In this document: positions 12,421-36,075 of the stretch, piece after piece | Layout: each line of letters begins with the position of its first letter | Position numbering within the stretch: the stretch's first letter is position 1 | Assembly: GCA_902628335.1 (NCBI GenBank) | Contig: CACOMO010000001.1 | Coordinates: forward strand, 45,313 to 109,312 | Direction of reading: 5' to 3' | DNA: 64,000 bases | From: an uncultured Gammaproteobacteria bacterium | GTDB lineage: Bacteria; Pseudomonadota; Gammaproteobacteria; GCA-002705445; GCA-002716945 | Notes under the pieces: model-generated | The model's database searches: none | What the model saw: only the letters and a program-made list of their open reading frames with translations | Told to the model about the DNA's origin: nothing | Translations under genes and position numbers: made by a program

Positions 12421-12430
12421 TTCTTATTCC

Positions 12431-14434: not shown

Positions 14435-14477
14435 TTGGTCTATCTACCTTACATAACAATTTTAAATGTTTTGTTAG

Positions 14478-14512
14478 AAAAAAGAAAGGCCGCTTATCAA
14501 AGATAAGCGGCC
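14478..14512 (-). terminator. Rho-independent terminator downstream of mtoX
   Basis: Perfect 11-bp stem GGCCGCTTATC/GATAAGCGGCC with a 3-nt loop (14488-14512). On the minus strand it is followed by TTTCTTTTTT. Confidence 0.75.
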
Positions 14513-14577
14513 CTACGTCTACAGCCATTTTACGTTATTTACCACCAATGAGGGTGTCTAATAACTATGACCAAATT

Positions 14578-15942
14578 TTACTGACTAAGTTCAGCCAAAT
14601 TTTTATTACTTGGTGTTTTTGCATATAAAGAATATGCGCCAAATCTCATTTGATGAGGCAAACCAAGCTTTTCTTTCAAGAAATCTATTTCAAATTTCTT
14701 AGAAAGTTTACCATTAGCATAATCATATGCTTTGAAGTATTGAGGCATTTTATCTGGTCCGTCAGCTTTATCCCAGTTGGCTAGAAGAGAAGACGTGAAA
14801 TATACACGTTTTCCGTCCCAACTTTGAGAAAGCATATTGATCTGATCACCAATTCTCTCAGTATAAACTTCTTTCGCATTATGTGGATCTGAGATGTCAA
14901 AAACTCTAGTCATGCCATCATTCCATGTATTTACCCAGAGGTGTTTATCATCTGCAGTTATCGAAATATCTACAGGTAAAGGAATTTTAGCAGGATCACC
15001 TATTGTTCCAACAGACTTAGCATTCCACTCATTATCTTTCTCGTAAATGAGCCAGATTTGTGATGTCAATGCAGTTGTTGTAAAACAGTAGTTGTTCTGA
15101 GAACCCCACGCGCATCTAATTTCTAGAGGTGCACCTGGTACATCAAAGATTTTTTTAGGTTTACGTGAATGTAAATCCCAAACAACAACAGTGTTACCGA
15201 ATCTCTTCATCGCTTCACTATCGCCCATTAATTTACCTAAGTTCATCATGTAATTATTCCAACCAGTAAAGGATGAAGTGATCATTACATTTCTTCTTGG
15301 TAATGCACGAACATCGTAACCATAACCATCAGCAAGCTGCCCAGTTTTAACAGCACCTCTAAGGTTACCGTCTACAGGCATATCATGCGTAGCTACGTAC
15401 GTACCATCGTTTGTGTATTCAACTAATGCTGTTCTACCACCAAAATCTTGGTTGTTTGATAATCCTGAGATCATCATTCTTCCAGGTAGTGCATATGTTG
15501 TATGAGGTCCAACTATACCGCCACTTGCTTTAACAAAGTCAGTGATGACTTTATGAAGCTTTGGTTTTTGTGGGTTAGTGTGGACATCAAATATAAAGAT
15601 TTTACTTGTATCTAAAGTTGCTGCCCATAGATAATGCCTATCATCTGTAAACCCAGAGTGATGAGCCTCATTACGACCACCAACAGATATGTGACCAATT
15701 ACATTGCCATAGTGAGGTGATGATGGATTGACAGCAATAGTTACTAATTTATCCTGTTCATCTCCAACACCCACTTGACCAAGTGTCCATACATAAACGT
15801 AATCCTCTTGGCCAACGATCTTAGCCATGTATGGTGACATGCAAGTCTCATCTGAGAATACATGTGTTGGTACAAGTACTAAAGCAAGAAAGCTTGACAT
15901 CAACATACCGTATACGGTTGACATAAGTCTTCTTATTTTCAT
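14578..15942 (-). CDS. mtoX: Methanethiol oxidase, selenium-binding protein (SBP56) family, periplasmic
   Basis: 454 aa. N-terminal signal with an RR (MKIRRLMS...). SBP56 hallmark strings NEAHHSGF, KPKLHKVITDF, RRNVMITS, PLEIRCAW, FDISDPHNAKEV and DGKRVYFTSSLLANWDK. AGGAG Shine-Dalgarno 9 nt upstream. Confidence 0.9.
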   Translation of the reverse strand: MKIRRLMSTVYGMLMSSFLALVLVPTHVFSDETCMSPYMAKIVGQEDYVYVWTLGQVGVGDEQDKLVTIAVNPSSPHYGNVIGHISVGGRNEAHHSGFTDDRHYLWAATLDTSKIFIFDVHTNPQKPKLHKVITDFVKASGGIVGPHTTYALPGRMMISGLSNNQDFGGRTALVEYTNDGTYVATHDMPVDGNLRGAVKTGQLADGYGYDVRALPRRNVMITSSFTGWNNYMMNLGKLMGDSEAMKRFGNTVVVWDLHSRKPKKIFDVPGAPLEIRCAWGSQNNYCFTTTALTSQIWLIYEKDNEWNAKSVGTIGDPAKIPLPVDISITADDKHLWVNTWNDGMTRVFDISDPHNAKEVYTERIGDQINMLSQSWDGKRVYFTSSLLANWDKADGPDKMPQYFKAYDYANGKLSKKFEIDFLKEKLGLPHQMRFGAYSLYAKTPSNKNLAELSQ

Positions 15943-15986
15943 ATTTGTGCGCTCCTATATAATTATATAATTTTCGCTTTAATTAA

Positions 15987-16010
15987 GAGGGCCATCTTTC
16001 AATGACCCTC
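15987..16010 (-). terminator. Possible hairpin terminator after the porin gene
   Basis: 9-bp stem (one G-U pair), GAGGGCCAT/ATGACCCTC, 36 nt downstream of the porin stop. The trailing U-tract is weak. Confidence 0.35.
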
Positions 16011-16045
16011 TATCCGTCTTAATAGTATATATCTCTTCCGTTAAC

Positions 16046-17545
16046 TTAGAAAGTCCAAGTTAATGCTCCACCTAGGTGAAAAGAAGAAACCGTAGCTTTT
16101 GAATGGTCAGCTGCTGCACAACCAGCATCAGCTAAACCGCCAGCAAGAGCTGTACCTCTAACCGCTGCGTTTCCGCCAGCATAGCTAGATGTTACACCTG
16201 CTTGACCAGCACCGAAGCATTTGTCCTCTTCGAGTTGGAAAGCCACGTGTGTATCAAGTGTTAGCATTGGTGCTAAGAATCCATCGATTCCAAGACCTGC
16301 AGATATACGATGTTTGTAGATAACTGGTGTTTCCATAGCTTGGAAATAAGACATAAATAAAGGATACATAGCAGATGTATATGTGCTACCACCTTCGTTT
16401 ACACCACCAATTGTTTTAATTTGAACACCGTCTTGAACACTCGCTCTCAATGGATCATCAGCATATCCATAACCTAGTCTAAATTTCATAGGTCCTTGAG
16501 TAAGCTGTAAACCAACAGAGTAGACTTCTTGGTCTTCATAAAACTCATTAAAGAATCGAGCATCGCTCCATGCTTTATGAGTAAAGTCACCCATCACTAA
16601 GAGATTTCCATTCATCAATCCATCAAAAGCAAATCCAAGACCAATATTCATCGGTTGTTCTACTCTTACGTCTTGACGACATACGCTACCGCTAGTTTGG
16701 TTACACTTAATTTCTGGTTGAAACTGAACGATACCTGATCCAGCACCTAATCCAGCCGAACCATGGTTACTAGTTACATGCAAATTATCATACTCGTGTG
16801 GTTGTTCTGTTTGAACGTAAGCGCCAACTGTCAAGTTAGAGTTTACTTTAGCACGTCCACCAAGAGTTGCACGAAAGCCAATGTCATGTGTCATGCCACC
16901 TGAACCTGTCAAACCAGCTTCAAGCATTGCATAGGTAATTGTCGCAGATACACCAACATCAACGTTAGGAGTCATTGACATACCGATACCGGCATTAACA
17001 CCTAAGTTAATTAGCTCTGCTGCTGCGCCTAATGTGTTTGAATTATGTTTATAATCAACACCGATACCAGATGTAGCTGATACACCTACACCAAGAACTA
17101 CTGGTATACCAAGACCAGTTAAGTCTTGAGTTACCGCAATAGTTGGCACAGCATAAACATCAGCTTTAGATGTAGCATCGAAGTGATAGTATCTTGCACC
17201 AGGTTTACCTGTTGCTCCAGCTGTAATTCTAACTAGGGATGTTGCTTCACCTACCGCATAACCCGCAGATCCATCATGAATCATACGCGCGCGCGGCATG
17301 TAGAATGTTGCACCAAACATAAAGTTAGTACCACCGTAGTAAGTTGTCAATGTTGCTGGATTACCAAAAACAGCGGATACTGGATCTTCTACATGCGCAA
17401 TACTAGTACCAGCCATTGAAGCTGATGCGCCATGAAACACATTATGAAGATCGAACCCATGTGGTCCAGCAACGGCCGCACCAGAACCTAGCGATAAGGC
17501 TGTACCTACCGCAGCTCCGAGCTTCCAATTACTATTTGTTTTCAT
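16046..17545 (-). CDS. Outer-membrane transport protein of the OMPP1/FadL/TodX (XylN-like) family for hydrophobic or volatile substrates
   Basis: 499 aa with a signal peptide ending AVAGP. N-terminal AGTSIAHVEDPVSAVFGNPATL matches the FadL-family NPA motif. Gly/Ala/Thr-rich beta-strand pattern and a C-terminal aromatic (LTWTF). About 45-48% G+C in sampled lines. Confidence 0.7.
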   Translation of the reverse strand: MKTNSNWKLGAAVGTALSLGSGAAVAGPHGFDLHNVFHGASASMAGTSIAHVEDPVSAVFGNPATLTTYYGGTNFMFGATFYMPRARMIHDGSAGYAVGEATSLVRITAGATGKPGARYYHFDATSKADVYAVPTIAVTQDLTGLGIPVVLGVGVSATSGIGVDYKHNSNTLGAAAELINLGVNAGIGMSMTPNVDVGVSATITYAMLEAGLTGSGGMTHDIGFRATLGGRAKVNSNLTVGAYVQTEQPHEYDNLHVTSNHGSAGLGAGSGIVQFQPEIKCNQTSGSVCRQDVRVEQPMNIGLGFAFDGLMNGNLLVMGDFTHKAWSDARFFNEFYEDQEVYSVGLQLTQGPMKFRLGYGYADDPLRASVQDGVQIKTIGGVNEGGSTYTSAMYPLFMSYFQAMETPVIYKHRISAGLGIDGFLAPMLTLDTHVAFQLEEDKCFGAGQAGVTSSYAGGNAAVRGTALAGGLADAGCAAADHSKATVSSFHLGGALTWTF

Positions 17546-17732
17546 ATTTTTTCCTCATTATATATATATAATAAATAACGTCTTAAAATTTTGGGTGAAT
17601 TACTTCTTGTAATCAAATGTGAATTTAACCCCCAATTGTCCTTCCTATAAGACTGTTTTTTATTGTTGTTTTTACTACAGATCTCTCTGTAGTATTTAAC
17701 TTGATGACTCAAAGTCAACAAGTCAAATCCAT

Positions 17733-18005
17733 TTACCCCTCATCTCCTGGTCCGTAGACTCCATCTTCAAACCATTCCCATGGACGGTTACCTGCAACTT
17801 TGATGAACAAATACACGCTAATCATATTTGCAACAATGAGCAAGAATCCAATTAGCAACGCAATTGGCCAACCAGCTAATCCTGGCATTGAACCTGGTGC
17901 GAAATGCCATGTTGGGAACATGCCGCTGAAGAAGTAGTAACAGGCTACCCAGAATGCCACGACAACATATGTGCCTTGAGCAGTTTTCCCGAATAGAAAT
18001 CCCAT
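17733..18005 (-). CDS. Small two-TM membrane protein of unknown function
   Basis: 90 aa with two hydrophobic segments and a Trp-rich acidic tail (RPWEWFEDGVYGPGDEG). Strong AGGAGA Shine-Dalgarno 6 nt upstream. I recognise no family. Confidence 0.55.
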   Translation of the reverse strand: MGFLFGKTAQGTYVVVAFWVACYYFFSGMFPTWHFAPGSMPGLAGWPIALLIGFLLIVANMISVYLFIKVAGNRPWEWFEDGVYGPGDEG

Positions 18006-18139
18006 ATTAATATCTCCTCTGTATAAGCATTTAATGATATAATAATACTTAATATATCTCTTTAACGTTCTTTAAAACTAACACAATTACAGGGTTTGTA
18101 AACATATTTTTGCAGTTTTATGAGGAGTTCTGTGAGCGC

Positions 18140-19228
18140 TTATAAATCCCTAGAATCAGTGAATTTATCATAGAAAATTTCATCACTTTTTATTCCATGT
18201 TTTTCTAGAACAACACAAGCAGCATCTATCATAGGGGGTGGCCCACAAAGATAACCTTGCCAGTCAGAGACATCTAAATTATCTTTTTTTATTATTTCAT
18301 TTTCAAAATAGTCTGTGACTAATCCACGACCACCTTTCCAATCACTATCCTCCGGTTCCATGTTTAGGACAGGGATAAAATCAAATTTATAATCTTTATT
18401 CCATTTATCTTTGAGTTCTTTTATTTCCTTAACACAATATAAATCCTCTTGTGTTCTTGCTCCGAAAAGAAAAACAACATCTCTCTTAACTTGGTCAAGA
18501 ACTCCACCTTCCAGTAGAGCTTTTATGGGTGCTAAGCCACTTCCACCAGCAATGCAAACAATTGGTGATTGTTTTTCTCGAAGGTAAAATGATCCAAATG
18601 GACCATTAACAGTTACTTGTTGACTCATATCTCTGTTGCTACCAAATAACCACTCAGTAAATTTTCCACCAGGAACCTTTCGTATAAAAAATGTAAACTC
18701 ATTTGGTTTTTCATTTTTTGGTGCTGCTGCATAAGAGTATGAACGAGGTCTGTCTAGACCATCTATTGAGAGTTCAGCCCACATACCAGGTAGACCTGCG
18801 TGCTCTACGTTTTGATCTGTTTGTAATACTACTCTCATAATGTCAGAAGTTAACATTTCAGTTTCGCTAATTAATGCGTTGTTTTTGATAGCAGGTACAC
18901 GAACAAGATCACCAAGATCAACTTCTATCTCACAATCCATTACAGGGCGTGCTTGACAGGCGAGAAAGTAACCATCATCAATCTCCTCTTTTGTAAGTAC
19001 TTGTGAATAATCAGATGTAGGTTTAATTTTTCCTTTTAATACTTTTCCCATACACGATGAACAGCTACCAAATTTACAATCATGTGGCCAGTCAAGTCCT
19101 TGCTCAAGAGCGGCATTTAATATCGATTGGTTACTTTTGACAAAAACCTTCTTATTAGAGGGAAGGAGTGTCATAGTTCCATCCTTGGGTTTATTACCAA
19201 AAAACCATAAATACTTATAAATGTTCAT
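18140..19228 (-). CDS. NAD(P)H:ferredoxin reductase with an N-terminal plant-type 2Fe-2S domain and a C-terminal FNR-like FAD/NAD domain (XylA-type electron-transfer component)
   Basis: C-x4-C-x2-C...C motif (CKFGSCSSC ... LACQ), FAD motif RSYSYA and NAD motif IAGGSGLAPI. The likely true start is Met19 (19174), which has AAGGA 7 nt upstream. The first 18 codons look non-coding. Confidence 0.85.
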   Translation of the reverse strand: MNIYKYLWFFGNKPKDGTMTLLPSNKKVFVKSNQSILNAALEQGLDWPHDCKFGSCSSCMGKVLKGKIKPTSDYSQVLTKEEIDDGYFLACQARPVMDCEIEVDLGDLVRVPAIKNNALISETEMLTSDIMRVVLQTDQNVEHAGLPGMWAELSIDGLDRPRSYSYAAAPKNEKPNEFTFFIRKVPGGKFTEWLFGSNRDMSQQVTVNGPFGSFYLREKQSPIVCIAGGSGLAPIKALLEGGVLDQVKRDVVFLFGARTQEDLYCVKEIKELKDKWNKDYKFDFIPVLNMEPEDSDWKGGRGLVTDYFENEIIKKDNLDVSDWQGYLCGPPPMIDAACVVLEKHGIKSDEIFYDKFTDSRDL

Positions 19229-19309
19229 CCTATAAAACCTTTCTTATTACTAATAAATTCTAAATCAAAGTAATCGTATTTACACGGAAATTATAATAAC
19301 ACCATGTAC

Positions 19310-19340
19310 AAAAAAAGAAACCCCAATTAAAATTGGGGTT
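19310..19340 (-). terminator. Rho-independent terminator downstream of the GST-like gene
   Basis: AACCCCAATT/AATTGGGGTT hairpin, followed on the minus strand by TCTTTTTTT. Confidence 0.75.
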
Positions 19341-19367
19341 CCTAATTGATGTTATATCAAATACTAC

Positions 19368-20018
19368 TTAAGCAGTATTGATACGAACTTCCCTGATTGT
19401 GCCTGCGTCAGCATCAGCTTTAGTAGACATACAGCCGTAAGGACTTATACTCTCCTTACTTGTAGATGGATGTGATTGCACAGAACTGAACCAAGCATTC
19501 ACCTTGGCTCTTGAACTTACTGCATCTCCTTTCCCCATATTTGTTGCTACTTGACAAACACCGGCCCACGCGCAATCTGCTAGCGTGTATTGACCACATA
19601 CATAATCCCCTCTCATATTGCCGAGTGACGATCCTAGTGTTTCTTCAAGTTGATCAAGTGATGCGGCTAGGCTTGCATCATCACTAACGTCACAAGCTTG
19701 TGCAACTGTAATTTCGCGCCACATGCGTGCACGAGTTACACCATTTCTGTGAACAAGTGATGGACCAAAGCCTTTGTCATCAATGTACGACATACATGCA
19801 ACTAGACCGTAATTTATACAATCACGATCTTTAAGAATAGGTCCTATTCCTAGTGGCGACATACTGCGTATTGAGCCTGATGGCCCCCAATCTGTCTCCG
19901 CATGACAATTCAAGTCAACACCTTTTTCACCGGCAGCTAATAGCACAGCGTTAGTGTGTGGACAGGCAGGACTACCATATAAGTCTTGTACGTCTCTTAG
20001 GTGATCTCCTATTGGCAT
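19368..20018 (-). CDS. Glutathione S-transferase-family protein with an N-terminal Cys-type site
   Basis: 216 aa. GST N-domain pattern (LYGSPACPHTNAVLLAAGEKGVD, SPLGIGPILKD) and C-domain pattern (GDYVCGQYTLADCAWA). About 47% G+C in a sampled line. GGGGG Shine-Dalgarno upstream. Confidence 0.6.
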   Translation of the reverse strand: MPIGDHLRDVQDLYGSPACPHTNAVLLAAGEKGVDLNCHAETDWGPSGSIRSMSPLGIGPILKDRDCINYGLVACMSYIDDKGFGPSLVHRNGVTRARMWREITVAQACDVSDDASLAASLDQLEETLGSSLGNMRGDYVCGQYTLADCAWAGVCQVATNMGKGDAVSSRAKVNAWFSSVQSHPSTSKESISPYGCMSTKADADAGTIREVRINTA

Positions 20019-20066
20019 AATATTACCCCCTATTATGTTTTTTTGTTTATAACTTAGCTAAGCTAG

Positions 20067-20246
20067 TTATTCTTCTATTTTTAACGCACCAGATGGACAG
20101 TTAGAAACTGTTAACCTGATGTTGTCTTCGCTGTCAGCAGATGTATCAATCACGAATTGTCCGTCTACTACTTTGAAAACGTTTGGTGATCCTTTTACAC
20201 ACTCACCAGCGTGTGTGCAGGTTTCTGCATCATAAGTAACTTTCAT
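20067..20246 (-). CDS. Small divergent 4Fe-4S mono-cluster protein (59 aa; below the ORF-track size cut-off)
   Basis: Hand translation: MKVTYDAETCTHAGECVKGSPNVFKVVDGQFVIDTSADSEDNIRLTVSNCPSGALKIEE. It matches the C-x-H-x3-C ... CPSGAL pattern of the small (4Fe-4S)-binding protein family (Fer4_19-like). AGGAG Shine-Dalgarno 6 nt upstream of the ATG. Confidence 0.72.
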   Translation of the reverse strand: MKVTYDAETCTHAGECVKGSPNVFKVVDGQFVIDTSADSEDNIRLTVSNCPSGALKIEE

Positions 20247-20324
20247 TATTCTCTCCTACTTAACCTATATATTTAATATAACGCAAATTTTAGTAGTTAT
20301 GCTAGTCATATTTTATGTTTTATT

Positions 20325-20357
20325 AAAAAAAATAGGCACCCAATAATGGGTGCCTAT
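20325..20357 (-). terminator. Rho-independent terminator downstream of the alkB-like gene
   Basis: 11-bp stem ATAGGCACCCA/TGGGTGCCTAT with a 4-nt loop, followed on the minus strand by an 8-T run. Confidence 0.8.
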
Positions 20358-20374
20358 CAAAATAAACTGATGGT

Positions 20375-21607
20375 TTACTTTTTAGCTGTTCTTAATCCAA
20401 GATCAACATTTCCAGCATCTTGTAAGACATCACCTGAGAATGGAGTACCTTCGTATCCAACTTCTCTGTTAAGTCTTGCAGCGATTGCTTTTTCTTCGTC
20501 AGTTGCGAAGTGCTCATCCCAAGCAGCTAGTCTTTTTCTCATGTACCAGTGCCATATTGGTGGTACTAGTGCAATGAAGAAGACCACGAAGTATCCCCAT
20601 CCTGTATTAGGGCAACCTACATTCTCGAGCTCCCAGAAATGAGTTTCTCCACGATCATGATGGTCTGCTTGACGACCAATCTCAATGAAGAACCATGCTG
20701 TAAAGCAAGTAGAGTTATCCCAGTTATGGCGATAATCGATTGGCTGATCTTTTAGACGAATCAAGCCATAGTGCTCTAGATAGTTCAACGCTTCTAATTC
20801 GAAGTTTGAAATACCCCAGATTGTAGCTAAACAAGCCATACCAACCCAGCCACCTGCTACGAAGAACAGAGTAACTGTTGGAACAGCCATTAAGTAACCA
20901 CGAATCCAACGGTTTTGCCATGAAATGAAAGGTACGCCCATACGGCCTAGTCTTTCTTTTTCCATGTTAAATAAAAACTTTGATTGACCTAGATATGATA
21001 GTGGGTAGTGACCATAAATTGTGCGACCACGTGGTGCAGTTGCAGGATCATCTTCACTAGCAAGTTCTAAGTGATGGTTGTACACGTGTGCATAGCAGAA
21101 ATGTGCAGAACCAGAAAGTGCCATCATTAGTCTTGAGATTACAAAACCAAAACCTTTGGTATGTGATAGCTCGTGACCATATATAATACCGATACCAATA
21201 AAGATACCAGATGATAATGTAGCACCAATCAAGTTAAGACCTGATATGCCTTCATGCATTGCTAACAGCCCTGGAATAATTTCCATGATGACTGCGCCTT
21301 CAGCTCCGCCTAGTGACATGTAAGAGTAAACTCTCCAAGCCATTACTAATTGGAACAATACGAACACAGGAAGCATAAAGTACATGGTCAAGTTTTGGAA
21401 AGTTGCCCATCCTCTTGTGTTTCCTTCTTCGTCTACTCCTACGCCTGTAGTTTCAAACTTAGTTGCTATGTCTACTAAAAGACCAACAAAAAGTAATACC
21501 ACACCTAACCAAGCCATAATGCCTCCGATTAGGACACCAGCACCAGCTACTATAATTAGTATTGGAGCAAGTAGGTAACGTACGTTTAATAATATGTTTC
21601 CGATCAT
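20375..21607 (-). CDS. Integral-membrane di-iron monooxygenase of the AlkB/XylM (fatty-acid desaturase superfamily) type
   Basis: His boxes HELSHT and AHVYNHH followed by EDDPATAPRG. NYLEHYGL motif and a third box RQADHH. Multiple TM segments. I moved the start to Met47 of the track ORF (ATG at 21607) because GGGAGG lies 6 nt upstream and the first 46 codons look like translated intergenic DNA. Confidence 0.85.
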   Translation of the reverse strand: MIGNILLNVRYLLAPILIIVAGAGVLIGGIMAWLGVVLLFVGLLVDIATKFETTGVGVDEEGNTRGWATFQNLTMYFMLPVFVLFQLVMAWRVYSYMSLGGAEGAVIMEIIPGLLAMHEGISGLNLIGATLSSGIFIGIGIIYGHELSHTKGFGFVISRLMMALSGSAHFCYAHVYNHHLELASEDDPATAPRGRTIYGHYPLSYLGQSKFLFNMEKERLGRMGVPFISWQNRWIRGYLMAVPTVTLFFVAGGWVGMACLATIWGISNFELEALNYLEHYGLIRLKDQPIDYRHNWDNSTCFTAWFFIEIGRQADHHDRGETHFWELENVGCPNTGWGYFVVFFIALVPPIWHWYMRKRLAAWDEHFATDEEKAIAARLNREVGYEGTPFSGDVLQDAGNVDLGLRTAKK

Positions 21608-21632
21608 CTTTACCTCCCAGATAAATCGAACG

Positions 21633-21661
21633 ATTATACTTGTAAACACTAATGTTTCGAA
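21633..21661 (-). promoter_or_regulatory. Putative sigma70 promoter for the alkB-like gene
   Basis: On the minus strand: TTCGAA, a 17-nt spacer, then a perfect TATAAT (reverse complement of 21633-21638). It sits about 25 nt upstream of the start codon. Confidence 0.35.
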
Positions 21662-21770
21662 TCTAAGATTTACTCCTAGAACCAAGCTCCTTAGGGAATA
21701 AATTCCCAATAAAATAATACTAAAAGCTTTTTGAAATCTAGTCAAAACTATTTTGAAATAATTTCTATAT

Positions 21771-21794
21771 ATAAGTATTTGCTTAAATACTTAT
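21771..21794. promoter_or_regulatory. Perfect 10-4-10 palindrome in the divergent alkB-like/SCO1 intergenic region (candidate operator)
   Basis: ATAAGTATTT-gctt-AAATACTTAT. A second palindrome, GGGAAT-aa-ATTCCC, lies at 21694-21707. Confidence 0.4.
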
Positions 21795-21902
21795 CATTTA
21801 GTGATATCCACAAATATGAGATTTTTCAGGCAATTCCTTATATTTTTTGGGGAAAACACATCTTATTTTTATGAGAGAGAATCAAATGTTATCATTAAGA
21901 CA

Positions 21903-22466
21903 ATGTTTAGATTAGTGATACAAAGTTTCATACTCAGTGCGGTATTAGTTCAGAATATTTATGCGATGCCTGACGTCAGCAAAGCTCTTCATGAGGTCTC
22001 TTTTTTTTCTCCGACAGAGAAGTCAGTGAAATTAGATAGGTACGAGGGTAAAGTAATGTTAGTTTTTTTTGGGTACACTCATTGCCCAGATATTTGCCCT
22101 ACTACCATGCTAGATATACGCAAGTCATTAATTGAACTAGGTGATCTCGCTAAGAGAGTTCAACCTGTGTTTATCAGCGTTGATCACCAAAGAGATACAC
22201 CAGAGATTGTCTCAAAATATGTGGATTTTTTTGACAAAAGGATTCTTGGTCTTACCTCATCCAAGGAAATGATCGATAGGATAACAAAATATTTCAAGAT
22301 CCCTTACGAGCTGGTGGACAGTAAAAATAATCCAAACTACATTGTTGAACATAGTTCGAACCTGTACGTAATAGACGAAAACATGGTAGTGAGAAGAATT
22401 ATCCCTAATGGCCTCCCATATACAGAGATTACCAAAACAATTCGCTCTCTAAGCGTAACTAATTAA
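21903..22466 (+). CDS. SCO1/SenC-family copper chaperone
   Basis: FGYTHCPDICP (CxxxCP) motif and a conserved downstream His (VEHSS). The start is set at ATG 21903 (MFRLVIQSFILSAVLVQNIYA signal/anchor) rather than the track's GTG at 21801. Confidence 0.8.
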   Translation: MFRLVIQSFILSAVLVQNIYAMPDVSKALHEVSFFSPTEKSVKLDRYEGKVMLVFFGYTHCPDICPTTMLDIRKSLIELGDLAKRVQPVFISVDHQRDTPEIVSKYVDFFDKRILGLTSSKEMIDRITKYFKIPYELVDSKNNPNYIVEHSSNLYVIDENMVVRRIIPNGLPYTEITKTIRSLSVTN

Positions 22467-22831
22467 TCATATTTTATGTATTTAAATCTTGGGTCATCCG
22501 GGGTTCCTTCAAGTGTGTTGTCCTCGTTTGATGGGTTCCACTGAATAACCTCCTCAATCTTTTTAGCTAATAGGAAGTCTTTATCGGTGATACCTTTTGC
22601 CGCATGATTCTGAAGCTTGACGATAACGAATGCGTAGGATGCTGAAATATCCGGATGATGCCACGCAGCTTCTGCTAGGTGACCTACTGTTGAAATCACC
22701 ATTAACGTCCCTTTCCATCCGCTGGTTTTATACTTTCTTCTAATCCACCCATTTTCATAGTACCAATTACTAAGGTGTGCTTTAAGGTAATCATTTATTT
22801 CGGTCTCAGAATATGTCTTTTCATCAGCCAT
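22463..22831 (-). CDS. Pterin-4-alpha-carbinolamine dehydratase (PCD/DCoH family)
   Basis: 122 aa with the motif AEAAWHHPDISASYAFVIVKLQNH..GITDKD. Confidence 0.78.
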   Translation of the reverse strand: MADEKTYSETEINDYLKAHLSNWYYENGWIRRKYKTSGWKGTLMVISTVGHLAEAAWHHPDISASYAFVIVKLQNHAAKGITDKDFLLAKKIEEVIQWNPSNEDNTLEGTPDDPRFKYIKYD

Positions 22832-22840
22832 TATTGTCTC

Positions 22841-23002
22841 CTAACTTGATTCATTTAATCTTACTTTCTTTACTATGCTTACGAGTAAGTTGAGCTCATC
22901 ATCTGAGAGTTTTTCGAGATCTATTTGCTCAGATGCTACACCACAAATACATAAATCCTCTGCAGATTCCTGAAGAAAATGTAAGCACTCTTTTCTATCC
23001 AT
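22841..23002 (-). CDS. Possible small hypothetical protein (53 aa)
   Basis: Hand-found ORF MDRKECLHFLQESAEDLCICGVASEQIDLEKLSDDELNLLVSIVKKVRLNESS, ending 10 nt before the PCD start. No recognised family and no clear Shine-Dalgarno. Confidence 0.2.
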   Translation of the reverse strand: MDRKECLHFLQESAEDLCICGVASEQIDLEKLSDDELNLLVSIVKKVRLNESS

Positions 23003-23077
23003 TTATACATCCATGAACTTAGTCCTTCCAATAAGATAGCATATTTTTATTGTATTTTAATAAGAATAGTAGTAGCC

Positions 23078-23150
23078 TGTGGGTATGGTGGATGAGAGAT
23101 ACCCACAATTTATTAAAGTTATTACTAAGGTACCCACAATGGTACCCACT
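23078..23150. repeat. Four copies of a TACCCAC(A) motif (one inverted, two in tandem) immediately upstream of the integrase-like start
   Basis: TGTGGGTAT (23078-23086, inverted), ATACCCACAAT (23099-23109), GGTACCCACAAT (23129-23140) and GGTACCCACT (23141-23150). The first two form an inverted repeat with a 12-nt spacer. Confidence 0.6.
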
Positions 23151-23176
23151 AATATTTTGTCGCATAGAGAGAAACC

Positions 23177-23656
23177 ATGTCGAAACTCACTGAAAAAATC
23201 ATAAACAGCGCACAGCCAAGATCAGCTGATTATAGACTTTCAGACGGGTCAGGTTTAGCAGTAATAATTAGAAAAAACGGTAACAAGCACTGGCAATTTC
23301 GTTACCACGTTTACGAGAATGGCAAACGCAAAGAGAGAATATATTCACTAGGTGAATACCCAACACTTAGTATCGAGAAAGCCAGACAAGAACATAGTTT
23401 TTTGAAAAAAAAGTTAGCTGATGGAGAAGATATTCAAAATATTAAAAGAAGGCAAGGTCTCAAGATTGTCAAAAAGCAACCTTCATTTGTTGAAATCGCT
23501 CAAGAGTTAAAGAAAATAAAAGAAAGGAAAAATCAGCTGGATTACAAATCTTGGAAAAAAGAACTCTCAAAATTTGAAAGTTCAATGTTACCTCACCTCA
23601 AAGAACTTAATCTTGAAAACCTTACTGCTGAAGATCTAATGCAAGTTCTTGATCCG
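23177..23656 (+). pseudogene. Remnant of a P4-type tyrosine integrase: Arm DNA-binding (DUF4102-like) plus SAM-like N-domain only, catalytic domain absent
   Basis: LTEKIINSAQPRSADYRLSDGSGLAVIIRKNGNKHWQFRY...GKRKERIYSLGEYPTLSIEKARQEHSFLKKKLADGEDI is the classic integrase arm-domain pattern. SFVEIAQE...NLTAEDLMQVLDP matches the following SAM-like domain. No R..HxxR..Y catalytic region follows. Confidence 0.75.
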
Positions 23657-25399
23657 CACTCAGATAAGAAAGAACAACAAAAAGATGGATTAATACGAGA
23701 AAAGAAATTCAAAAAAAACAAGAGACTTAGAAACAGAGGAAGAAAAGTTAATCTTGATGTAAAAGAAGATTTAATCAAGCTCATAAATACAGATTCCTAT
23801 AGACGTGACCATTTAATAGAATATCTTCATTTAATTCAGGATGCTAAGGGCCATATAAATGAGGAATATATGACGGCTCTAGCTGATTTAATGGATATCT
23901 CTCAAACTGAAGTCTATGAAGTGGCCACATTTTACCATCACTTTGACATTATAAAGTCGGGTGATGAATGTCCGCCCTCACTCACAATAAGAGTGTGCGA
24001 TTCTGTGTCATGTGAATTAAATGGAGCTCATGAATTGGCAGACGAACTAGACAATTATTACAAAGGATCAGTAAGAATACAAAAAGTACCTTGTATTGGA
24101 AGATGTCAGAATGCTCCAGTAGCAGTTGTGAAATTCAATCCTATAGATCATGCAAATTTTAAAAAAATAAAAATTGCAGTAGATCAAAAAAAATATCAAC
24201 CCGAAATCCCAAAGTATATAACTATGTCTGATTATTCCTCCAAAGGAGGTTATGAATTATTAGATGAAATCAAAAAAGGATCCGTTACTAAAGAAAGTGT
24301 ATTGGTCGAACTAGAAAACTCAAATCTTCGTGGCTTAGGTGGAGCAGGTTTCCCAGCAGGAAAAAAATGGAGAATCTTAATCGAACAAGAAGCTCCGAGA
24401 CTATTAGCAGTAAATATAGATGAGGGTGAGCCAGGGACTTTTAAAGATCGTCATTATCTTGAATCAGACCCTCATAGATTTTTAGAGGGTATGCTTATAG
24501 CTTCTGAAGTTGTAGGTATTGATAAGATTTATATTTATTTGCGTGATGAATATGCGGCAGTTCGTAAAATACTCGCTGATGAATTAGATAACATAAGAGA
24601 TAAATTTGCTGGTGATATACCAGATATTGAACTCAGACGAGGCGCAGGTGCATATATATGTGGAGAGGAGTCAGCAATGATTGAATCTATCGAAGGAAAA
24701 AAAGGTATGCCGAGATTAAGACCACCTTTCGTCGCACAAGTTGGTCTATTTGGAAGACCTACCCTTGCTCATAATATGGAGACTCTTTATTGGGTAAGAG
24801 ACATTATTGAAAAAGGAGCAGATTGGTTTACATCTTATGGTCGTAATGATCGAAAAGGTCTTAGATCATTCTCTGTAAGCGGTAGAGTTAAAAAACCTGG
24901 TGTCCATCTTGCACCTGCAGGAATTACCGTTAGGGAGCTAATCGACGAATATGCTGGAGGTATGGAAGAAGGTCATAAGTTCTATGCGTATTTCCCTGGT
25001 GGAGCCTCAGGTGGCATTCTACCTGCGTCTATGGACGATATACCTCTTGATTTTGATACCCTTCATGAATATGGTTGTTTCATTGGATCTGCAGCAATTG
25101 TAATCTTATCTGACAAAGATAAAGTTGCTCAAGCGGCATCAACTACTATGGGATTCTTCCTTCATGAATCATGCGGAAAATGTACTCCATGCAGAGTAGG
25201 TACCTCAAAAGCCACTGAAATGATGAAAGAAAAAAAATGGAATGTGCCATTACTTTCAGAACTCTCTCAAGTTATGTCGGATGCATCAATTTGTGGTCTA
25301 GGTCAAGCAGCATCAAATCCGCTCAAATGCGTTATAAAATATTTCCCTAATGAACCAGAGACAACTCCTATCATTGAATATAAAAAGGTGCAGAATTAA
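23177..25399 (+). CDS. fdsB: NAD-dependent formate dehydrogenase beta subunit (NuoE-like plus NuoF-like domains) carrying an in-frame integrase-derived N-terminal extension
   Basis: From about residue 195: a NuoE-type 2Fe-2S domain (RVCDSVSCE ... VPCIGRCQNAP), the FMN site GLGGAGFPAGKKW and the NuoF 4Fe-4S motif ESCGKCTPCR. There is no in-frame ATG/GTG/TTG between Met155 (23639) and the NuoE-like domain. Confidence 0.85.
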   Translation: MSKLTEKIINSAQPRSADYRLSDGSGLAVIIRKNGNKHWQFRYHVYENGKRKERIYSLGEYPTLSIEKARQEHSFLKKKLADGEDIQNIKRRQGLKIVKKQPSFVEIAQELKKIKERKNQLDYKSWKKELSKFESSMLPHLKELNLENLTAEDLMQVLDPHSDKKEQQKDGLIREKKFKKNKRLRNRGRKVNLDVKEDLIKLINTDSYRRDHLIEYLHLIQDAKGHINEEYMTALADLMDISQTEVYEVATFYHHFDIIKSGDECPPSLTIRVCDSVSCELNGAHELADELDNYYKGSVRIQKVPCIGRCQNAPVAVVKFNPIDHANFKKIKIAVDQKKYQPEIPKYITMSDYSSKGGYELLDEIKKGSVTKESVLVELENSNLRGLGGAGFPAGKKWRILIEQEAPRLLAVNIDEGEPGTFKDRHYLESDPHRFLEGMLIASEVVGIDKIYIYLRDEYAAVRKILADELDNIRDKFAGDIPDIELRRGAGAYICGEESAMIESIEGKKGMPRLRPPFVAQVGLFGRPTLAHNMETLYWVRDIIEKGADWFTSYGRNDRKGLRSFSVSGRVKKPGVHLAPAGITVRELIDEYAGGMEEGHKFYAYFPGGASGGILPASMDDIPLDFDTLHEYGCFIGSAAIVILSDKDKVAQAASTTMGFFLHESCGKCTPCRVGTSKATEMMKEKKWNVPLLSELSQVMSDASICGLGQAASNPLKCVIKYFPNEPETTPIIEYKKVQN

Positions 25400-28159
25400 A
25401 TGGCTACTAATCCAAAAGAAATTTCTGACAGAAGTTTTGTTGCCATTAAGATTAATGGCAAAAATTACTTTGGAAACCCAAATGAGACAATACTTGATGT
25501 GTCAAAGAGGAATGGAATTGAAATCCCGCATCTTTGTTTTAAAGAAGGTATGAGACCTGATGGTAATTGCAGAGCTTGTATGGTTGAAATAGAAGGTGAG
25601 AGAGTTCTTCAACCATCATGCGTGAGAACAATATCTGATGGGATGGTTGTCAATACCAATAACGATCGTGTTATCCACTCGCAAAAACTAGTGCTAGAGC
25701 TTCTAACCTCTGATGTGTCTGATAAAATTTATAAAAAAGATAGTGAACTATCTGATTGGGCTGAGAGATTAAATATCAAAGCAAACAGGTTTCCAACTAA
25801 CGTACAAGAAAAACACGATCTCACACATCCAGCAATTGCAGTCAATCTAGATGCTTGTATTCAATGTACAAGATGTGTTCGTGCATGCCGTGAAGAACAA
25901 GTTAACGATGTGATTGGATATGCAAATCGTGGTTTCAAATCTGAGATTGTTTTCGATATAAATGATTTTATGGGTGAAAGCACATGCGTTGGGTGTGGTG
26001 AATGTGTTCAAGCATGTCCTACCGGCGCCTTGATGCCATCAAAAGAAGTTGCACTAAACATACCGGATAAGAAAGTTGAAAGCGTGTGCCCTTATTGCGG
26101 AGTTGGGTGTTTGCTGACTTATAACGTAAAGGATGAGAAAATTCTATTTGCTGAAGGGAGAGATGGACCTTCTAATTTAAGTAGACTTTGTGTTAAAGGT
26201 CGCTATGGTTTTGATTACATTCATAATGATGGGAGGTTAACTAAACCTCTTATAAGAAAACAAGGGGTTAACAAAAATATTGATCTTCATTCATATGATT
26301 TTAACAATATAAACGAAATTTTCGAGGAGACAACATGGGAACACGCATTAGATGTCGCGATAGAAGGTTTTAAAAAAGTAAAAAAATCTAAAGGTCCATC
26401 TGGTCTTGCGGGGTTTGGCTGTGCGAAAGGCTCCAATGAGGAAGCTTATCTTTTCCAAAAACTAATTAGGACTGGATTCGATACAAACAATGTTGATCAT
26501 TGTACGAGGTTATGTCATGCGTCATCGGTAGTAGCCTTACTTGAGATGGTTGGTTCAGGAGCTGTTTCAAATCAAGTTGCTGACGTCACTGAGGCAGAAG
26601 TAATTATCATTATTGGTTCTAATCCAACTGTTAATCATCCTGTAGCGGCAACGTTTATGAAAAATGCTTCAAAAGAAGGTAAAACTCTAATAGTGATGGA
26701 CCCTAAAAAAACAGATATATCAAGACATGCAAATTATTTTCTTCAGTTTAAACCTGACACAGATGTGGCGATGCTAAACGCGATAATGAAGTCTATTATA
26801 GATCAAGACTTAGTCGATAAAGAGTTTATTAAAACTAGAACAAAAGATTACGACAAACTTAGAAATCATCTTAAAGATTATTCGCCAAAAATAATGTCTA
26901 AAATATGTGGTATACCAGAAGAAACACTTAATGAGGTTGCAAGGCTATACGCATCATCAAAAGGTTCAATGATATTTTGGGGCATGGGTGTCTCACAGCA
27001 TATCCATGGCACTGATAATGCACGGGCATTAATCTCGCTTGCACTAATGACAGGACAAATTGGCAAGCCTGGCACAGGATTACATCCCCTAAGAGGCCAA
27101 AATAACGTCCAAGGCGCCTCTGACGCTGGACTTATTCCAATGGTATTCCCAGATTATCAAAGAGTAGATGATCCAAAAATTAATAAATTCTTTGAAAATT
27201 TTTGGGGCACAAAATTGGATAAAAAGCCAGGCTTAACAGTAGTAGAAATTATGGATGCAATTGTTGCAGGAGATCTCACAGGTTTATACGTGATGGGAGA
27301 AAATCCTGCAATGTCAGATCCAGATTTAAATCACGCTAGGAAAGCCTTATCCAGCCTAGAACATTTAGTAGTACAAGATATATTTGTTACTGAGACTGCA
27401 TTTTTTGCGGATGTTATATTACCAGCATCTGCATTCCCGGAAAAAACTGGTAGTTTCACAAATACCGATAGAAGAGTGCAATTAGGTAGACAAGCTGTTT
27501 ACCCCCCAGGCCAAGCAAAACAGGATCTTTGGATTATTCAACAAATAGCTCGTGGGATGGGTTTAGATTGGAACTATAATGGTCCAAAAGATGTCTTTGA
27601 GGAAATGACTAGATGCATGCCTACTATTGCAGGTATTACCTGGGAGAGACTTGAGCAAGAACATTCAGTTACATATCCATGTAACACAGAGGATGACCCA
27701 GGCCAACCTGTTATTTTCACTCAAGAATTTCCTACATCAGATGGATTAGCCACCTTTAAAGTATCGCCTTTTAAAAACGCCGATGAATTACCAGATACGG
27801 AATTTGATTATATATTAATAACAGGAAGACAACTTGAGCACTGGCATACAGGTAGTATGACAAGACGAGCAAGTATGCTACACCAAATTGAGCCAGATCC
27901 TTTTGCAAATATGTGTTTAGAAGACATGAAAAAAATTGGTGTACAAGATGGTGATCTCATTACCATTGAATCAAGAAGAGGGAAAGTAGATGTCTATGCA
28001 AGAAGAGATGATGGGCTACAGCTAGGTCAAATATTTATACCATTTTGCTACGTTGAAGCAGCAGCAAATGTTTTAACAAACGCAGCTCTAGACCCAGACG
28101 CAAAAATTCCAGAGTTTAAATTCTGTGCTGTTAAAATAAAAAAAACTCACATCAATTAA
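25400..28159 (+). CDS. fdsA: NAD-dependent formate dehydrogenase alpha subunit (molybdopterin, Cys-type)
   Basis: 919 aa. N-terminal 2Fe-2S domain (CRACMVE), two ferredoxin 4Fe-4S motifs (CIQCTRCVRAC, CVGCGECVQACP), CPYCGVGC and the active-site region HCTRLCHASSV. The ATG follows the fdsB stop codon directly (TAAATG, no spacer). Confidence 0.95.
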   Translation: MATNPKEISDRSFVAIKINGKNYFGNPNETILDVSKRNGIEIPHLCFKEGMRPDGNCRACMVEIEGERVLQPSCVRTISDGMVVNTNNDRVIHSQKLVLELLTSDVSDKIYKKDSELSDWAERLNIKANRFPTNVQEKHDLTHPAIAVNLDACIQCTRCVRACREEQVNDVIGYANRGFKSEIVFDINDFMGESTCVGCGECVQACPTGALMPSKEVALNIPDKKVESVCPYCGVGCLLTYNVKDEKILFAEGRDGPSNLSRLCVKGRYGFDYIHNDGRLTKPLIRKQGVNKNIDLHSYDFNNINEIFEETTWEHALDVAIEGFKKVKKSKGPSGLAGFGCAKGSNEEAYLFQKLIRTGFDTNNVDHCTRLCHASSVVALLEMVGSGAVSNQVADVTEAEVIIIIGSNPTVNHPVAATFMKNASKEGKTLIVMDPKKTDISRHANYFLQFKPDTDVAMLNAIMKSIIDQDLVDKEFIKTRTKDYDKLRNHLKDYSPKIMSKICGIPEETLNEVARLYASSKGSMIFWGMGVSQHIHGTDNARALISLALMTGQIGKPGTGLHPLRGQNNVQGASDAGLIPMVFPDYQRVDDPKINKFFENFWGTKLDKKPGLTVVEIMDAIVAGDLTGLYVMGENPAMSDPDLNHARKALSSLEHLVVQDIFVTETAFFADVILPASAFPEKTGSFTNTDRRVQLGRQAVYPPGQAKQDLWIIQQIARGMGLDWNYNGPKDVFEEMTRCMPTIAGITWERLEQEHSVTYPCNTEDDPGQPVIFTQEFPTSDGLATFKVSPFKNADELPDTEFDYILITGRQLEHWHTGSMTRRASMLHQIEPDPFANMCLEDMKKIGVQDGDLITIESRRGKVDVYARRDDGLQLGQIFIPFCYVEAAANVLTNAALDPDAKIPEFKFCAVKIKKTHIN

Positions 28160-29886
28160 TGGTTAAAGAAAAATCTTTAGATACATATCTTGAGGAGATA
28201 CAAGATCATATAAGTCATGGAAGGTTGAATGAGGCTCTTTTGAATGTAAAAGAGGCCATTAGTGATTACCCAACACACACTAAACTTCATATAAACTGTG
28301 GCAACCTCCAACATTATCTTGGTTTATTAGATGATGCGGAAAAATCTCTTATGACAGCAAGAGAATTATATGAAAGCAAAGAGGTTTTAAATAATCTTGG
28401 TGTCGTGTATATCGACAAGCAAATGTACGATAATGCTATAGACCTCCTCGAAAGGTCTCTGGATTTAGATAATTTTTATCCTGATGCATTATATAATCTA
28501 TCTGTTTGTTATGACAGAAAGGGAGATTACGAAAAGACTTTGACTTACCTTGAAAAATGCCTTGATGTAGATGATCACCATTTAAAAGCTAACATGCTTC
28601 TTTTACGTACATGTCAAAATACTTGCAATTGGAAAAGACTAAATGAATTAAAAACTAAGATTGGAAATTTAAATATAAATGGCCTTGAACATCCTTTTCT
28701 AAACGTATCAAGATGTGATGATGAAAAGGCTAACTATGCTAATGCCGTTCAGTGGCACAAAAATAATTTTCAACATAAGACTTCTTCTCAGCAAAAAGAA
28801 ATATCAAAAAAAAATAATAAAAAGAGTGTCGGCTTTATCTGTGGAGAAATTAGGGACCATCCAACATTTTATTTAATCAAGAATATGTTTCAGTATTTAA
28901 ATAAAGAAGTTTTTGATTATTATTTTTTTACATATAATCATGATCAAAATTATTTGAGCTACATTGACAAACATATCACTATGGTTGTGGATATCGATAA
29001 TAAATCTGATGATCAGATAGAAAGTATGGTGCGAGAACATGATCTAGATATTCTTATTGACTTATCTGTTTATATACCTCACAACAAGATGAATGTTGTC
29101 AATAGAAAATTAGCCAGAAAAACAATATCTTATCTTGGATTTCCTGGAAGTAGCGGTTCAGATAACTATGACTATATCATTGCAGATAAAATCGTGATAC
29201 CAGAGGATAAACAGAACTTCTATAGTGAAGATGTTCTTTATCTCCCTAATATTTATCAAGTAAATGATGGTATAAAGAAGTACCCAAATAAAAAAACTAA
29301 GAAGAATGATTACTCTCTTCCAGAGGAGAAAATAATCCTCTCCTGTTTTAATCAATCTTTCAAAATTGAAGAAGATATTTTTAAATGCTGGATAGAGATA
29401 TTAAAAAGAAATGAAAATACAGTTTTATGGCTACTTGAGGATAATGCTTTGATGAAACAATACATAGTCGAATACTTATTAGAGTCAGGGTTAGACGAAT
29501 CTAGAATCATTTTTGCACAAAGAATATCAAGAGAAGCGCATATTGAGAGATTGGGGCTTTCAGATATTGTGTTAGATACAAGAACATATAATGGGCATAC
29601 TACTACTACTGATGCAATTCAATGTGGTGTTCCTGTAATCACAATATCAGGGCAGCACTTTGCTTCTAGAGTAAGTCACAGTATTCTAAATTCTGTCGGT
29701 TTGAATGAACTTGTGACACATAACTTTAAAGATTATACAGAAAAGATCCACTCGTTAGTGAATAATGCAGAGCAAAGATTAGCTTTGTGTGAAAAACTAA
29801 AAAACGAGGAAGTAATGGGGAATCTTTATGATTTACAACAATTCACAAAAGATTTTGAAAAAGTTATGTTATCTGTCACGAATTAA
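28159..29886 (+). CDS. TPR-repeat protein fused to a GT41 (SPINDLY/OGT-like) glycosyltransferase domain
   Basis: 575 aa. N-terminal TPR-like repeats (about the first 150 aa). The C-terminal half has a GT41-like string, YNGHTTTTDAIQCGVPVITISG. The start overlaps the fdsA stop (TAATG). Confidence 0.65.
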   Translation: MVKEKSLDTYLEEIQDHISHGRLNEALLNVKEAISDYPTHTKLHINCGNLQHYLGLLDDAEKSLMTARELYESKEVLNNLGVVYIDKQMYDNAIDLLERSLDLDNFYPDALYNLSVCYDRKGDYEKTLTYLEKCLDVDDHHLKANMLLLRTCQNTCNWKRLNELKTKIGNLNINGLEHPFLNVSRCDDEKANYANAVQWHKNNFQHKTSSQQKEISKKNNKKSVGFICGEIRDHPTFYLIKNMFQYLNKEVFDYYFFTYNHDQNYLSYIDKHITMVVDIDNKSDDQIESMVREHDLDILIDLSVYIPHNKMNVVNRKLARKTISYLGFPGSSGSDNYDYIIADKIVIPEDKQNFYSEDVLYLPNIYQVNDGIKKYPNKKTKKNDYSLPEEKIILSCFNQSFKIEEDIFKCWIEILKRNENTVLWLLEDNALMKQYIVEYLLESGLDESRIIFAQRISREAHIERLGLSDIVLDTRTYNGHTTTTDAIQCGVPVITISGQHFASRVSHSILNSVGLNELVTHNFKDYTEKIHSLVNNAEQRLALCEKLKNEEVMGNLYDLQQFTKDFEKVMLSVTN

Positions 29887-35985: not shown

Positions 35986-36002
35986 TTGAATTAAACGATT
36001 TA

Positions 36003-36075
36003 CATCCCCAAGGGGAGTCGAACCCCTGTTGCCGAGATGAAAACCCGGTGTCCTAGGCCTCTAGACGATGGGGAC
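36003..36075 (-). tRNA. tRNA-Glu (anticodon UUC), no encoded CCA
   Basis: The reverse complement GTCCCCATCGTCTAGAGGCCTAGGACACCGGGTTTTCATCTCGGCAACAGGGGTTCGACTCCCCTTGGGGATG folds as a cloverleaf. Acceptor GTCCCCA/TGGGGAT, anticodon stem CCGGG/CTCGG with loop TTTTCAT, T-arm AGGGG-TTCGACT-CCCCT. Confidence 0.9.

Follow-up and report, generated by a model that had tools for sequence, protein, structure and literature searches.

Why does a formate dehydrogenase gene of a small-genomed marine bacterium begin with a piece of a tyrosine integrase? We addressed this question in a 64,000-nucleotide stretch of DNA (hereafter, the window) from an uncultured Gammaproteobacteria bacterium (GenBank assembly GCA_902628335.1, contig CACOMO010000001.1, positions 45,313 to 109,312 of the forward strand). 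In this window, fdsB, the gene for the beta subunit of formate dehydrogenase (FDH), is fused in frame to the arm-type DNA-binding domain (Arm) of a P4-type integrase. An initial annotation, made from the letters alone, had read the fusion as the scar of an integration or deletion event. We found the Arm domain joined to subunits of formate dehydrogenase and of cytochrome bc1, both core energy enzymes, in abundant, uncultured marine bacteria with genomes of ~1 Mb. Judging from sequence conservation, the most likely explanation is that the Arm cassette has been retained by selection to let the enzyme subunit control the operon that encodes it.

The fusion gene and its product

The fusion gene is a single open reading frame (ORF), and the alpha-subunit gene begins one base past its stop codon. 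The features of the two genes are as follows.

23177..25399, + strand: fusion ORF, 740 aa
23186..23455, + strand: Arm-type DNA-binding domain, aa 4-93 (PF13356; PDB 3JU0/3JTZ; AlphaFold2 model)
23486..23671, + strand: core-binding (SAM-like) remnant, about two thirds of the domain, aa 104-165 (PF14659/PF22022 below threshold; colinear with intact integrases)
23689..23690, + strand: fusion junction, between codons 171 and 172 (alignment with unfused 558-aa orthologues; the native Met has become Ile172)
23690..25399, + strand: Fdh1B-type formate dehydrogenase beta subunit with NuoE-like 2Fe-2S, NuoF-like FMN/NAD and 4Fe-4S parts (Pfam; 7E5Z_B)
25400..28159, + strand: formate dehydrogenase alpha subunit, 919 aa

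As the initial annotation had proposed, a P4-type tyrosine integrase is the source of the N-terminal part. PF13356 (Arm-DNA-bind_3) matched residues 4-93 with E=1e-17 and 64.5 bits against a cut-off of 27 (Pfam/NCBIfam), and solved structures of arm-type binding domains matched the N-terminus as well (3JU0, E=1e-12; 3JTZ/3RMP, E=2e-10). Its alignment with intact ~400-aa integrases was colinear over their residues ~2-160, and even the nearest of them reached only 33-36% identity. Residues 104-165 gave weak, sub-threshold matches to Phage_int_SAM_3 (PF14659) and Phage_int_M (PF22022). This core-binding domain is incomplete, with model positions 1-59 of the 96 in PF22022 covered, at 14-17 bits against a cut-off of 27. 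For residues 1-160, where a profile search had been proposed as a check, the matches bore out the Arm domain above its cut-off and the SAM-like domain below threshold only. The catalytic integrase domain is indeed missing, since PF00589 had no match in the fusion ORF (Pfam/NCBIfam), and the only PF00589 genes in the genome were two frames of 301 and 308 aa located elsewhere. No tRNA or tmRNA att site lies beside the fusion gene; the only tRNA gene in the window is that for tRNA-Glu (36002-36076).

The enzyme part carries 2Fe-2S_thioredx (202-336), Complex1_51K (380-540), SLBB and NADH_4Fe-4S (653-728) domains, and PF01257, PF01512, PF10531 and PF10589 each scored above cut-off in the single chain. 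Residues 184-725 aligned end to end with 7E5Z_B, the beta subunit of the tungsten FDH1 of Methylorubrum extorquens (E=4.9e-204), and the enzyme part was 78-80% identical to unfused orthologues. Judged by these matches, the gene product is a full Fdh1B-type beta subunit of an NAD-linked formate dehydrogenase. It shares with the M. extorquens Fdh1B the fused NuoE and NuoF architecture and the two-gene alpha/beta arrangement, but neither Fdh1B nor the 558-aa orthologues of sister genera have an N-terminal extension. Molybdopterin and Fe-S Pfam domains were recorded in orthologues of the alpha subunit. In the genomes bearing the fusion, the window's own included, the fusion gene is the only fdsB found.

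An AlphaFold2 (AF2) model was used only for per-segment confidence and secondary structure. The Arm was modelled as four strands and a helix, with a predicted local distance difference test score (pLDDT) of 76-90, and residues 104-161 as three helices. Residues 158-188, which include the junction, were disordered. In the model, therefore, a flexible, basic tether of ~30 residues joins the Arm part to the enzyme part.

The position of the junction followed from the unfused orthologues, which begin MDIKRKLQKNKKLRNRGRKVNF. The K/E/R-rich stretch had been described as a linker throughout. Its first half can be kept as such, but from about REKKFKKNKRLRNRGRKVN onward the aligned 558-aa orthologues identify it as the conserved, basic native N-terminus of FdsB. 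The stretch REKKFKKNKK at the junction is common to all fused forms.

With the native start codon lost, translation of FdsB depends on integrase-derived sequence, as had been suggested. Between codons 61 and 223, the only in-frame ATG, GTG or TTG codons are TTG76, ATG137 (23585) and ATG155 (23639), and our scan to codon 223 agreed that none lies between Met155 and the NuoE-like domain. The two ATG codons raise the possibility of internal initiation, at Met137 or Met155, which would yield FdsB at its unfused size alone and leave the Arm frame translated little or not at all. We consider this highly improbable, as these Met codons are not conserved: residue 155 is Leu in P0003 and P0006, and no such start whatever is available in the 664-aa forms. 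In the 664-aa lineage the core-binding remnant (aa 107-171, 65 codons) has been cleanly deleted with the Arm kept. Its member L027 contains no in-frame ATG, GTG or TTG between codons 61 and 158 and must therefore translate the fusion protein. The entire upstream frame is, moreover, under purifying selection at the protein level (see below).

Spread, selection and history of the fusion

PF13356 and the FdsB domains occurred together in 21 protein clusters (740, 732, 729, 725 and 664 aa; 94-67% identity). The clusters come from TARA, JGI, NCBI metagenome-assembled genomes and other sources, and include many independently assembled contigs (SPAdes, MEGAHIT). Because the window's genome is itself metagenome-assembled, a chimera of an integrase fragment and fdsB, arising in assembly or binning, had to be considered. 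This explanation is effectively refuted, since the identical junction recurs in the genomes of six species and in dozens of contigs assembled independently, by different projects and with different assemblers, and since sequence divergence is distributed over both halves of the gene.

Our species-level set for the family comprised 37 genomes of ~1 Mb in six genera. Six of them carry the fusion: four in the window's genus (g1), one in g5 and one, of the 664-aa form, in g2. The initial annotation would have taken orthologues with the same N-terminal region as a sign that the integrase assignment was wrong. Such orthologues exist, but the assignment holds, and the shared region is a domesticated integrase domain.

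Selection was estimated as the ratio of nonsynonymous to synonymous substitution rates (dN/dS) by the Nei-Gojobori method in close pairs of loci, as synonymous sites were saturated in distant pairs. The pairs gave the following values.

L004 and L005: Arm 0.046, middle part 0.029, FdsB part 0.040
L008 and L029: Arm 0.096, middle part 0.107, FdsB part 0.094
L024 and L027: Arm 0.060, FdsB part 0.046 (no middle value)

In distant pairs, the proportion of nonsynonymous differences (pN) in the Arm part was just 0.17-0.31. An alignment of the N-terminal part of nine fused sequences (195 columns) contained 59 invariant columns, of which 47 fell within the Arm (aa 1-93). By these measures, purifying selection acts as strongly on the integrase-derived part as on the enzyme part. 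From homology, and from the dN/dS of 0.04 in the enzyme part, the complex is predicted to have formate:NAD+ oxidoreductase activity.

These values bear on the simplest alternative, namely that the integrase fragment supplies a promoter, a ribosome-binding site and a start codon, and that the Arm is a functionless leader. It would account for the loss of the native start codon in most fused forms, with no in-frame start nearby, and for the absence of the native promoter. A functionless leader, however, is not expected to show dN/dS values of 0.03-0.10, equal to those of the enzyme part, or to hold most of the invariant columns, and the 664-aa lineage dropped 65 codons yet precisely kept the Arm. 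Together with the upstream repeats and the second fusion described below, this makes a neutral relic quite unlikely.

The order of genes around fdsB was the same in fused and unfused loci (SCO1/SenC, Pterin_4a, fdsB, fdsA, TPR-GT41, Pterin_bind, Lactamase_B), and comparison of the two kinds of locus revealed no island remains at the fused ones. The suggestion that the fusion marks the right-hand edge of a block of mtoX and monooxygenase genes is not borne out, as the run SCO1, Pterin_4a, fdsB, fdsA, TPR/GT41 is shared by both kinds of locus. Nor did the reading as a recent scar survive: the fusion is found in six species of three genera at 67-94% identity, its integrase part is constrained as strongly as the enzyme, and the invariant upstream repeats are always present. 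On this sequence evidence, the fusion is old.

Its history was not simply vertical. The FdsB tree requires at least two changes between the fused and unfused states, and the 664-aa forms are mosaic, being nearest to fused genes up to about residue 260 and nearest to unfused g2 genes beyond. We therefore rejected a single vertical origin of all fused forms. Given these tree changes, the mosaicism and the single common junction, the most economical history would be one fusion event, after which the 5' cassette moved between genera by homologous recombination. A further genome of the window's genus, G001 (contamination estimate 4%), has two unfused fdsB copies on short contigs (C27 and C24). Its fdsB sequence forms a long branch beside the fused clade and may represent contamination or a retained ancestral allele.

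Upstream repeats, a second fusion and the origin of the Arm

The region upstream of the fusion gene contains three elements that are conserved among fused loci.

23070..23075, + strand: candidate -10 element TAGTAG, 2 nt before the palindrome (assigned by eye and from conservation)
23078..23107: palindrome TGTGGGTAT-N12-ATACCCACA, with arms at 23078-23086 and 23099-23107; candidate arm-type sites or operator
23130..23149, + strand: tandem direct repeats GTACCCACA (from 23130) and GTACCCAC (from 23142), with a period of 12 bp, ending 27 nt before the ATG

The palindrome occurs only once in the window (100 shuffles gave 0 matches) and only once in the genome. Its arms were 100% identical in all 10 distinct fused loci aligned, which represent every fused lineage, as against 42-64% identity in the spacer and flanks, and the spacer between the 9-mers was held at 12-13 nt (TGTGGGTAT-N12/13-ATACCCACA). 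Three further loci, L025, L026 and L028, which are near-identical to L024 and L027, also bear it, and one 664-aa form has two palindromes. Each of these 10 loci also has a TAGTA(G/T/C) block, always equally far from the palindrome. Both tandem TACCCAC repeats occupied the same position in seven of the eight distinct fused loci of 725-740 aa that were aligned; the eighth, L006, has one proximal copy following an insertion.

Neither the palindrome nor the tandem repeats occurred in any of 14 unfused loci. These loci have a conserved promoter of their own, TTGATTAGTCA...AAAGAACWTATAAT (TATAAT), which is absent from the window's fused locus, in line with the earlier proposal that the native start and promoter of fdsB had been replaced. 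Since the unfused loci lack the repeats and use a different promoter, the integrase fragment brought its own upstream region, whose repeats are under selection. That the repeats are invariant while their surroundings drift is difficult to reconcile with a functionless leader.

The window's genus contained no catalytic P4-type integrase and no AlpA-type factor, so that the sites cannot serve recombination there. For the same reason, we rejected an AlpA/Vis-type factor as an alternative binder.

A second fusion has the same design. Arm-PetA, a protein of 304 aa, combines PF13356 with UCR_Fe-S_N and Rieske domains and is encoded by the first gene of petABC, the bc1 operon. Its parts are arranged in the order Arm, linker of ~20 residues, twin-arginine (TAT) signal, membrane anchor and Rieske domain. 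It was found in three species of the window's genus (G003, G004 and G005) and in 24 metagenome clusters, at the following loci.

L046, 1501-2415 (G004:C20): Arm-PetA
L043 (G003:C54): Arm-PetA
L047/L063 (G005:C20): Arm-PetA
L096 and L097: Arm-PetA

In the 31 other petA-bearing genomes, PetA is ~197-228 aa long and lacks the Arm extension (in G007 the gene is split between two contig ends). petA was absent from the assemblies of G000, the window's own genome, and of G002, and present in 34 of the 35 other family genomes, the exception being the 69%-complete G041.

Upstream of Arm-PetA lies TTGACT-N17-TATyCT, followed by TGTGGGTAA-N9/10-ATTACCCACA and then by TTACCCAW-N3/4-TTACCCACA. This region was conserved in 5/5 Arm-PetA loci and in 0/17 unfused petA loci, and its tandem sites have the same period and core as those of the fdsB cassette. 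In Arm-PetA, the Arm and PetA parts had dN/dS values of 0.032 and 0.028, respectively, and the linker had one of 0.242. Because the Arm is constrained and the linker evolves fast, the Arm appears to be a functional domain on a flexible tether, and the recurrence of this design on petA again argues against a neutral relic. The N-terminus of bacterial Rieske proteins stays in the cytoplasm, and the topology of Arm-PetA is consistent with a cytoplasmic Arm.

The Arm-domain tree united the FdsB-Arms and PetA-Arms with four integrases in a single clade (support 100/93), within which the PetA-Arms were sister to integrases that include one from G048, a genome of a sister genus in the same family (99/87). 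This placement indicates that the FdsB and PetA fusions were separate captures from one integrase subfamily. The G048 gene was located as follows.

L044, 902-1864 (G048:C47): genuine P4-type integrase gene, incomplete at the contig end; tmRNA gene 255 bp upstream of it

The tmRNA gene is a typical integration site for P4-like elements. Between the end of ssrA and the int ATG of G048 (presumed attL) we found TTGGGTAAA-N10-TTTACCCAA and TACCCAT..ATGGGTA repeats. They have the TACCCA core and palindromic grammar of the fusion cassettes and lie where arm-type sites are expected. By these features, the G048 integrase appears to be a surviving example of the kind of element that donated the Arm. The site variant also follows the Arm clade: ATACCCAC accompanies the FdsB-Arm, and TTACCCA accompanies the PetA-Arm and the G048 integrase. 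The repeats are thus best interpreted as arm-type sites of this integrase subfamily. Other non-integrase Arm architectures were seen in public metagenomes (P0121, 839 aa; P0166, 343 aa; P0126; P0157), and include five tandem Arm domains alone, an HNH nuclease with two Arm domains, and two Arm domains in others.

A candidate autoregulatory cassette and its surroundings

The reading that we favour, with reasonable though far from full confidence, is that the domesticated Arm and the arm-type sites form a self-contained autoregulatory cassette in which the Arm binds DNA. The cassette would begin with a promoter-like element, followed by the palindrome, which coincides with the expected start site or lies immediately downstream of it, and then by the tandem sites and the Arm ORF. 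The Arm of FdsB, and likewise that of PetA, would bind the repeats at or just downstream of its own promoter, and binding would exert negative feedback on its own operon. A domesticated part of a mobile element would thereby have given rise to a PutA-like trigger enzyme.

This proposal draws on the wiring of tRNA-associated int genes. Their promoters commonly overlap the arm-type sites of attL and are negatively autoregulated via the N-terminal domain of Int, and P4 Int is cited as behaving likewise (Panis et al., PMC2951348). We propose autoregulation because the cassettes keep this arrangement of int promoter and arm-type sites. The repeats and the Arm co-occur without exception: in fdsB, 10/10 fused loci have them and 0/14 unfused loci do, and in petA the corresponding counts are 5/5 and 0/17.

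Several observations weigh against the autoregulatory reading. A scan for sigma-70 consensus promoters (and terminators) across 22700-23300 returned nothing useful upstream of the gene. TACCCACA was at chance frequency genome-wide, with 17 occurrences observed and 17.5 expected. We accordingly rejected a genome-wide regulon; as the motif is not enriched, any regulon must be tiny. The whole-protein confidence of the AF2 model was low (mean pLDDT 63, predicted template modelling score 0.39). Access to DNA may be restricted for an Arm that is carried on a membrane-anchored Rieske protein or on a large FDH complex. The sign of regulation, repression rather than activation, is pure inference. Finally, the palindrome can fold as an RNA hairpin with a 9-bp stem (-12.9 kcal/mol, z=-2.0).

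The hairpin, whose variable loop has a fixed length, suggests an alternative in which the palindrome is a stem-loop in the 5' leader RNA, acting in stability or processing, or is the operator of another factor, and the Arm acts in protein-protein contacts. Against an RNA role, the arms are invariant in sequence, with zero compensatory changes in the 10 loci aligned, and the core recurs as direct tandem repeats, which cannot pair. Both an RNA role and another factor are at odds with the way the site variant (ATACCCAC or TTACCCA) tracks the Arm clade, and no AlpA-type factor is available to occupy the sites. This alternative appears very unlikely.

It is also conceivable that the Arm is functional without being an autoregulator, serving as a decoy on the arm-type sites of incoming islands that target ssrA and belong to the same integrase subfamily (exclusion or defence) or as a nucleoid tether. 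Integrases of the same Arm clade do circulate in the family, as in G048 at ssrA, and genus g1 has no intact integrase of this type. A decoy or tether, however, leaves unexplained why cognate sites are conserved right upstream of both fusion genes, beside their promoters, and why the Arm forms part of the first gene of energy operons instead of being expressed alone. We regard this possibility as unlikely.

A bolder form of the autoregulatory reading, which we put forward only tentatively, would make the Arm cassette (promoter, arm-type sites and Arm ORF) a portable feedback module, captured at least twice (fdsB and petA) from ssrA-type islands by streamlined marine bacteria that have very few regulators, recombined between genera, and coupled to assembly or redox state, with an HPP gene as a target in trans. 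The Arm of an unassembled subunit would bind its own promoter, and entry of the subunit into FDH or the membrane-bound bc1 complex would withdraw it. Transcription of the operon would thereby be coupled to complex assembly or redox state, as in a PutA-like switch between DNA and membrane. The candidate trans target is suggested by the tandem TTACCCACA-N3-WTTACCCACAA, which is conserved in three species, the window's own among them, at G000:C4:86671-86693 (L093 1072-1094), G005:C3:36319 and G002:C1:80291. These positions lie in an orthologous intergenic region, between His_Phos_1 and the gene for an HPP-family (TM_HPP) membrane protein, whose flanks have diverged. An Arm-fusion protein may act in trans on this TTACCCACA tandem, which precedes the HPP gene. 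Tandem matches in genus g6 (L094, L095) were rejected, as they lie inside long ORFs and look like chance.

Several known systems resemble the cassette in part. The autoregulated integrases of tRNA and tmRNA sites (IntS of KplE1, P4 Int) likewise have an N-terminal Arm, with short inverted and direct sites between the att core and the int start, beside the promoter. Unlike them, the fusion lacks a catalytic domain, a complete core-binding domain, an att core or tRNA and any partner for recombination within the genus, and its operon yields a redox enzyme rather than an integrase.

Enzyme-repressor fusions such as PutA, BirA and NadR are reportedly known as trigger enzymes. They share with the present fusions an N-terminal DNA-binding domain on a metabolic enzyme and candidate operators before their own operon, and PutA, too, is a flavoenzyme. 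The difference lies in the fold, an integrase Arm rather than a ribbon-helix-helix (RHH) or helix-turn-helix (HTH) domain, and in its acquisition, with sites, from a mobile element; DNA binding and a ligand or redox switch are only predicted here.

Host regulators recruited from the DNA-binding domains of mobile elements are well known from eukaryotes and have been described only recently in bacteria. Eukaryotic transposase-derived factors and the bacterial TldR repressors, which derive from TnpB (PMC10705468), resemble the cassette in that a DNA-recognition module was co-opted, apparently with its sites. The source here is instead a tyrosine-integrase Arm, which forms part of enzyme subunits and is not a separate protein. 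We found no description of Arm-enzyme fusions in the literature on domestication of the Arm domain (DUF4102/PF13356). Enzyme-regulator fusions and domesticated mobile-element DNA-binding domains are thus both known; the source, the pairing with sites and the targets appear to be new.

If the Arm binds these sites, a genome poor in transcription factors would have gained ready-wired negative feedback from a decaying island. The trigger-enzyme class would likewise gain a new fold, with Arm-PetA as a membrane-tethered example. Automatic annotation is misleading for such genes, labelling them 'NADH-quinone oxidoreductase subunit F' or flagging an integrase remnant or island border.

Two divergent genes lie upstream of the fusion gene in the window.

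22463..22831, - strand: Pterin-4a-carbinolamine dehydratase-like gene (PF01329, E=5e-23), upstream of fdsB in all fused and unfused loci
22841..23002, - strand: 53-aa Cys-containing ORF (MDRKECLHFLQESAEDLCICGVAS...), divergent from the fusion gene, with no Pfam match

A homologue of the 53-aa ORF was readable upstream of the fused loci of genus g1, where the L032 copy was annotated as a gene of 68 aa; the g5, 664-aa and unfused loci lack it. Downstream, a gene for a TPR protein with a GT41 (OGT-like) glycosyltransferase domain (28159-29886, + strand) overlaps the end of fdsA, and its position after fdsA was kept in all fused lineages examined (L024, L027, L032). The G+C content was 0.37-0.42 at 12000-28000 of the window, a segment that spans the mtoX/hydroxylase block and the formate dehydrogenase genes, as compared with ~0.30-0.34 elsewhere.

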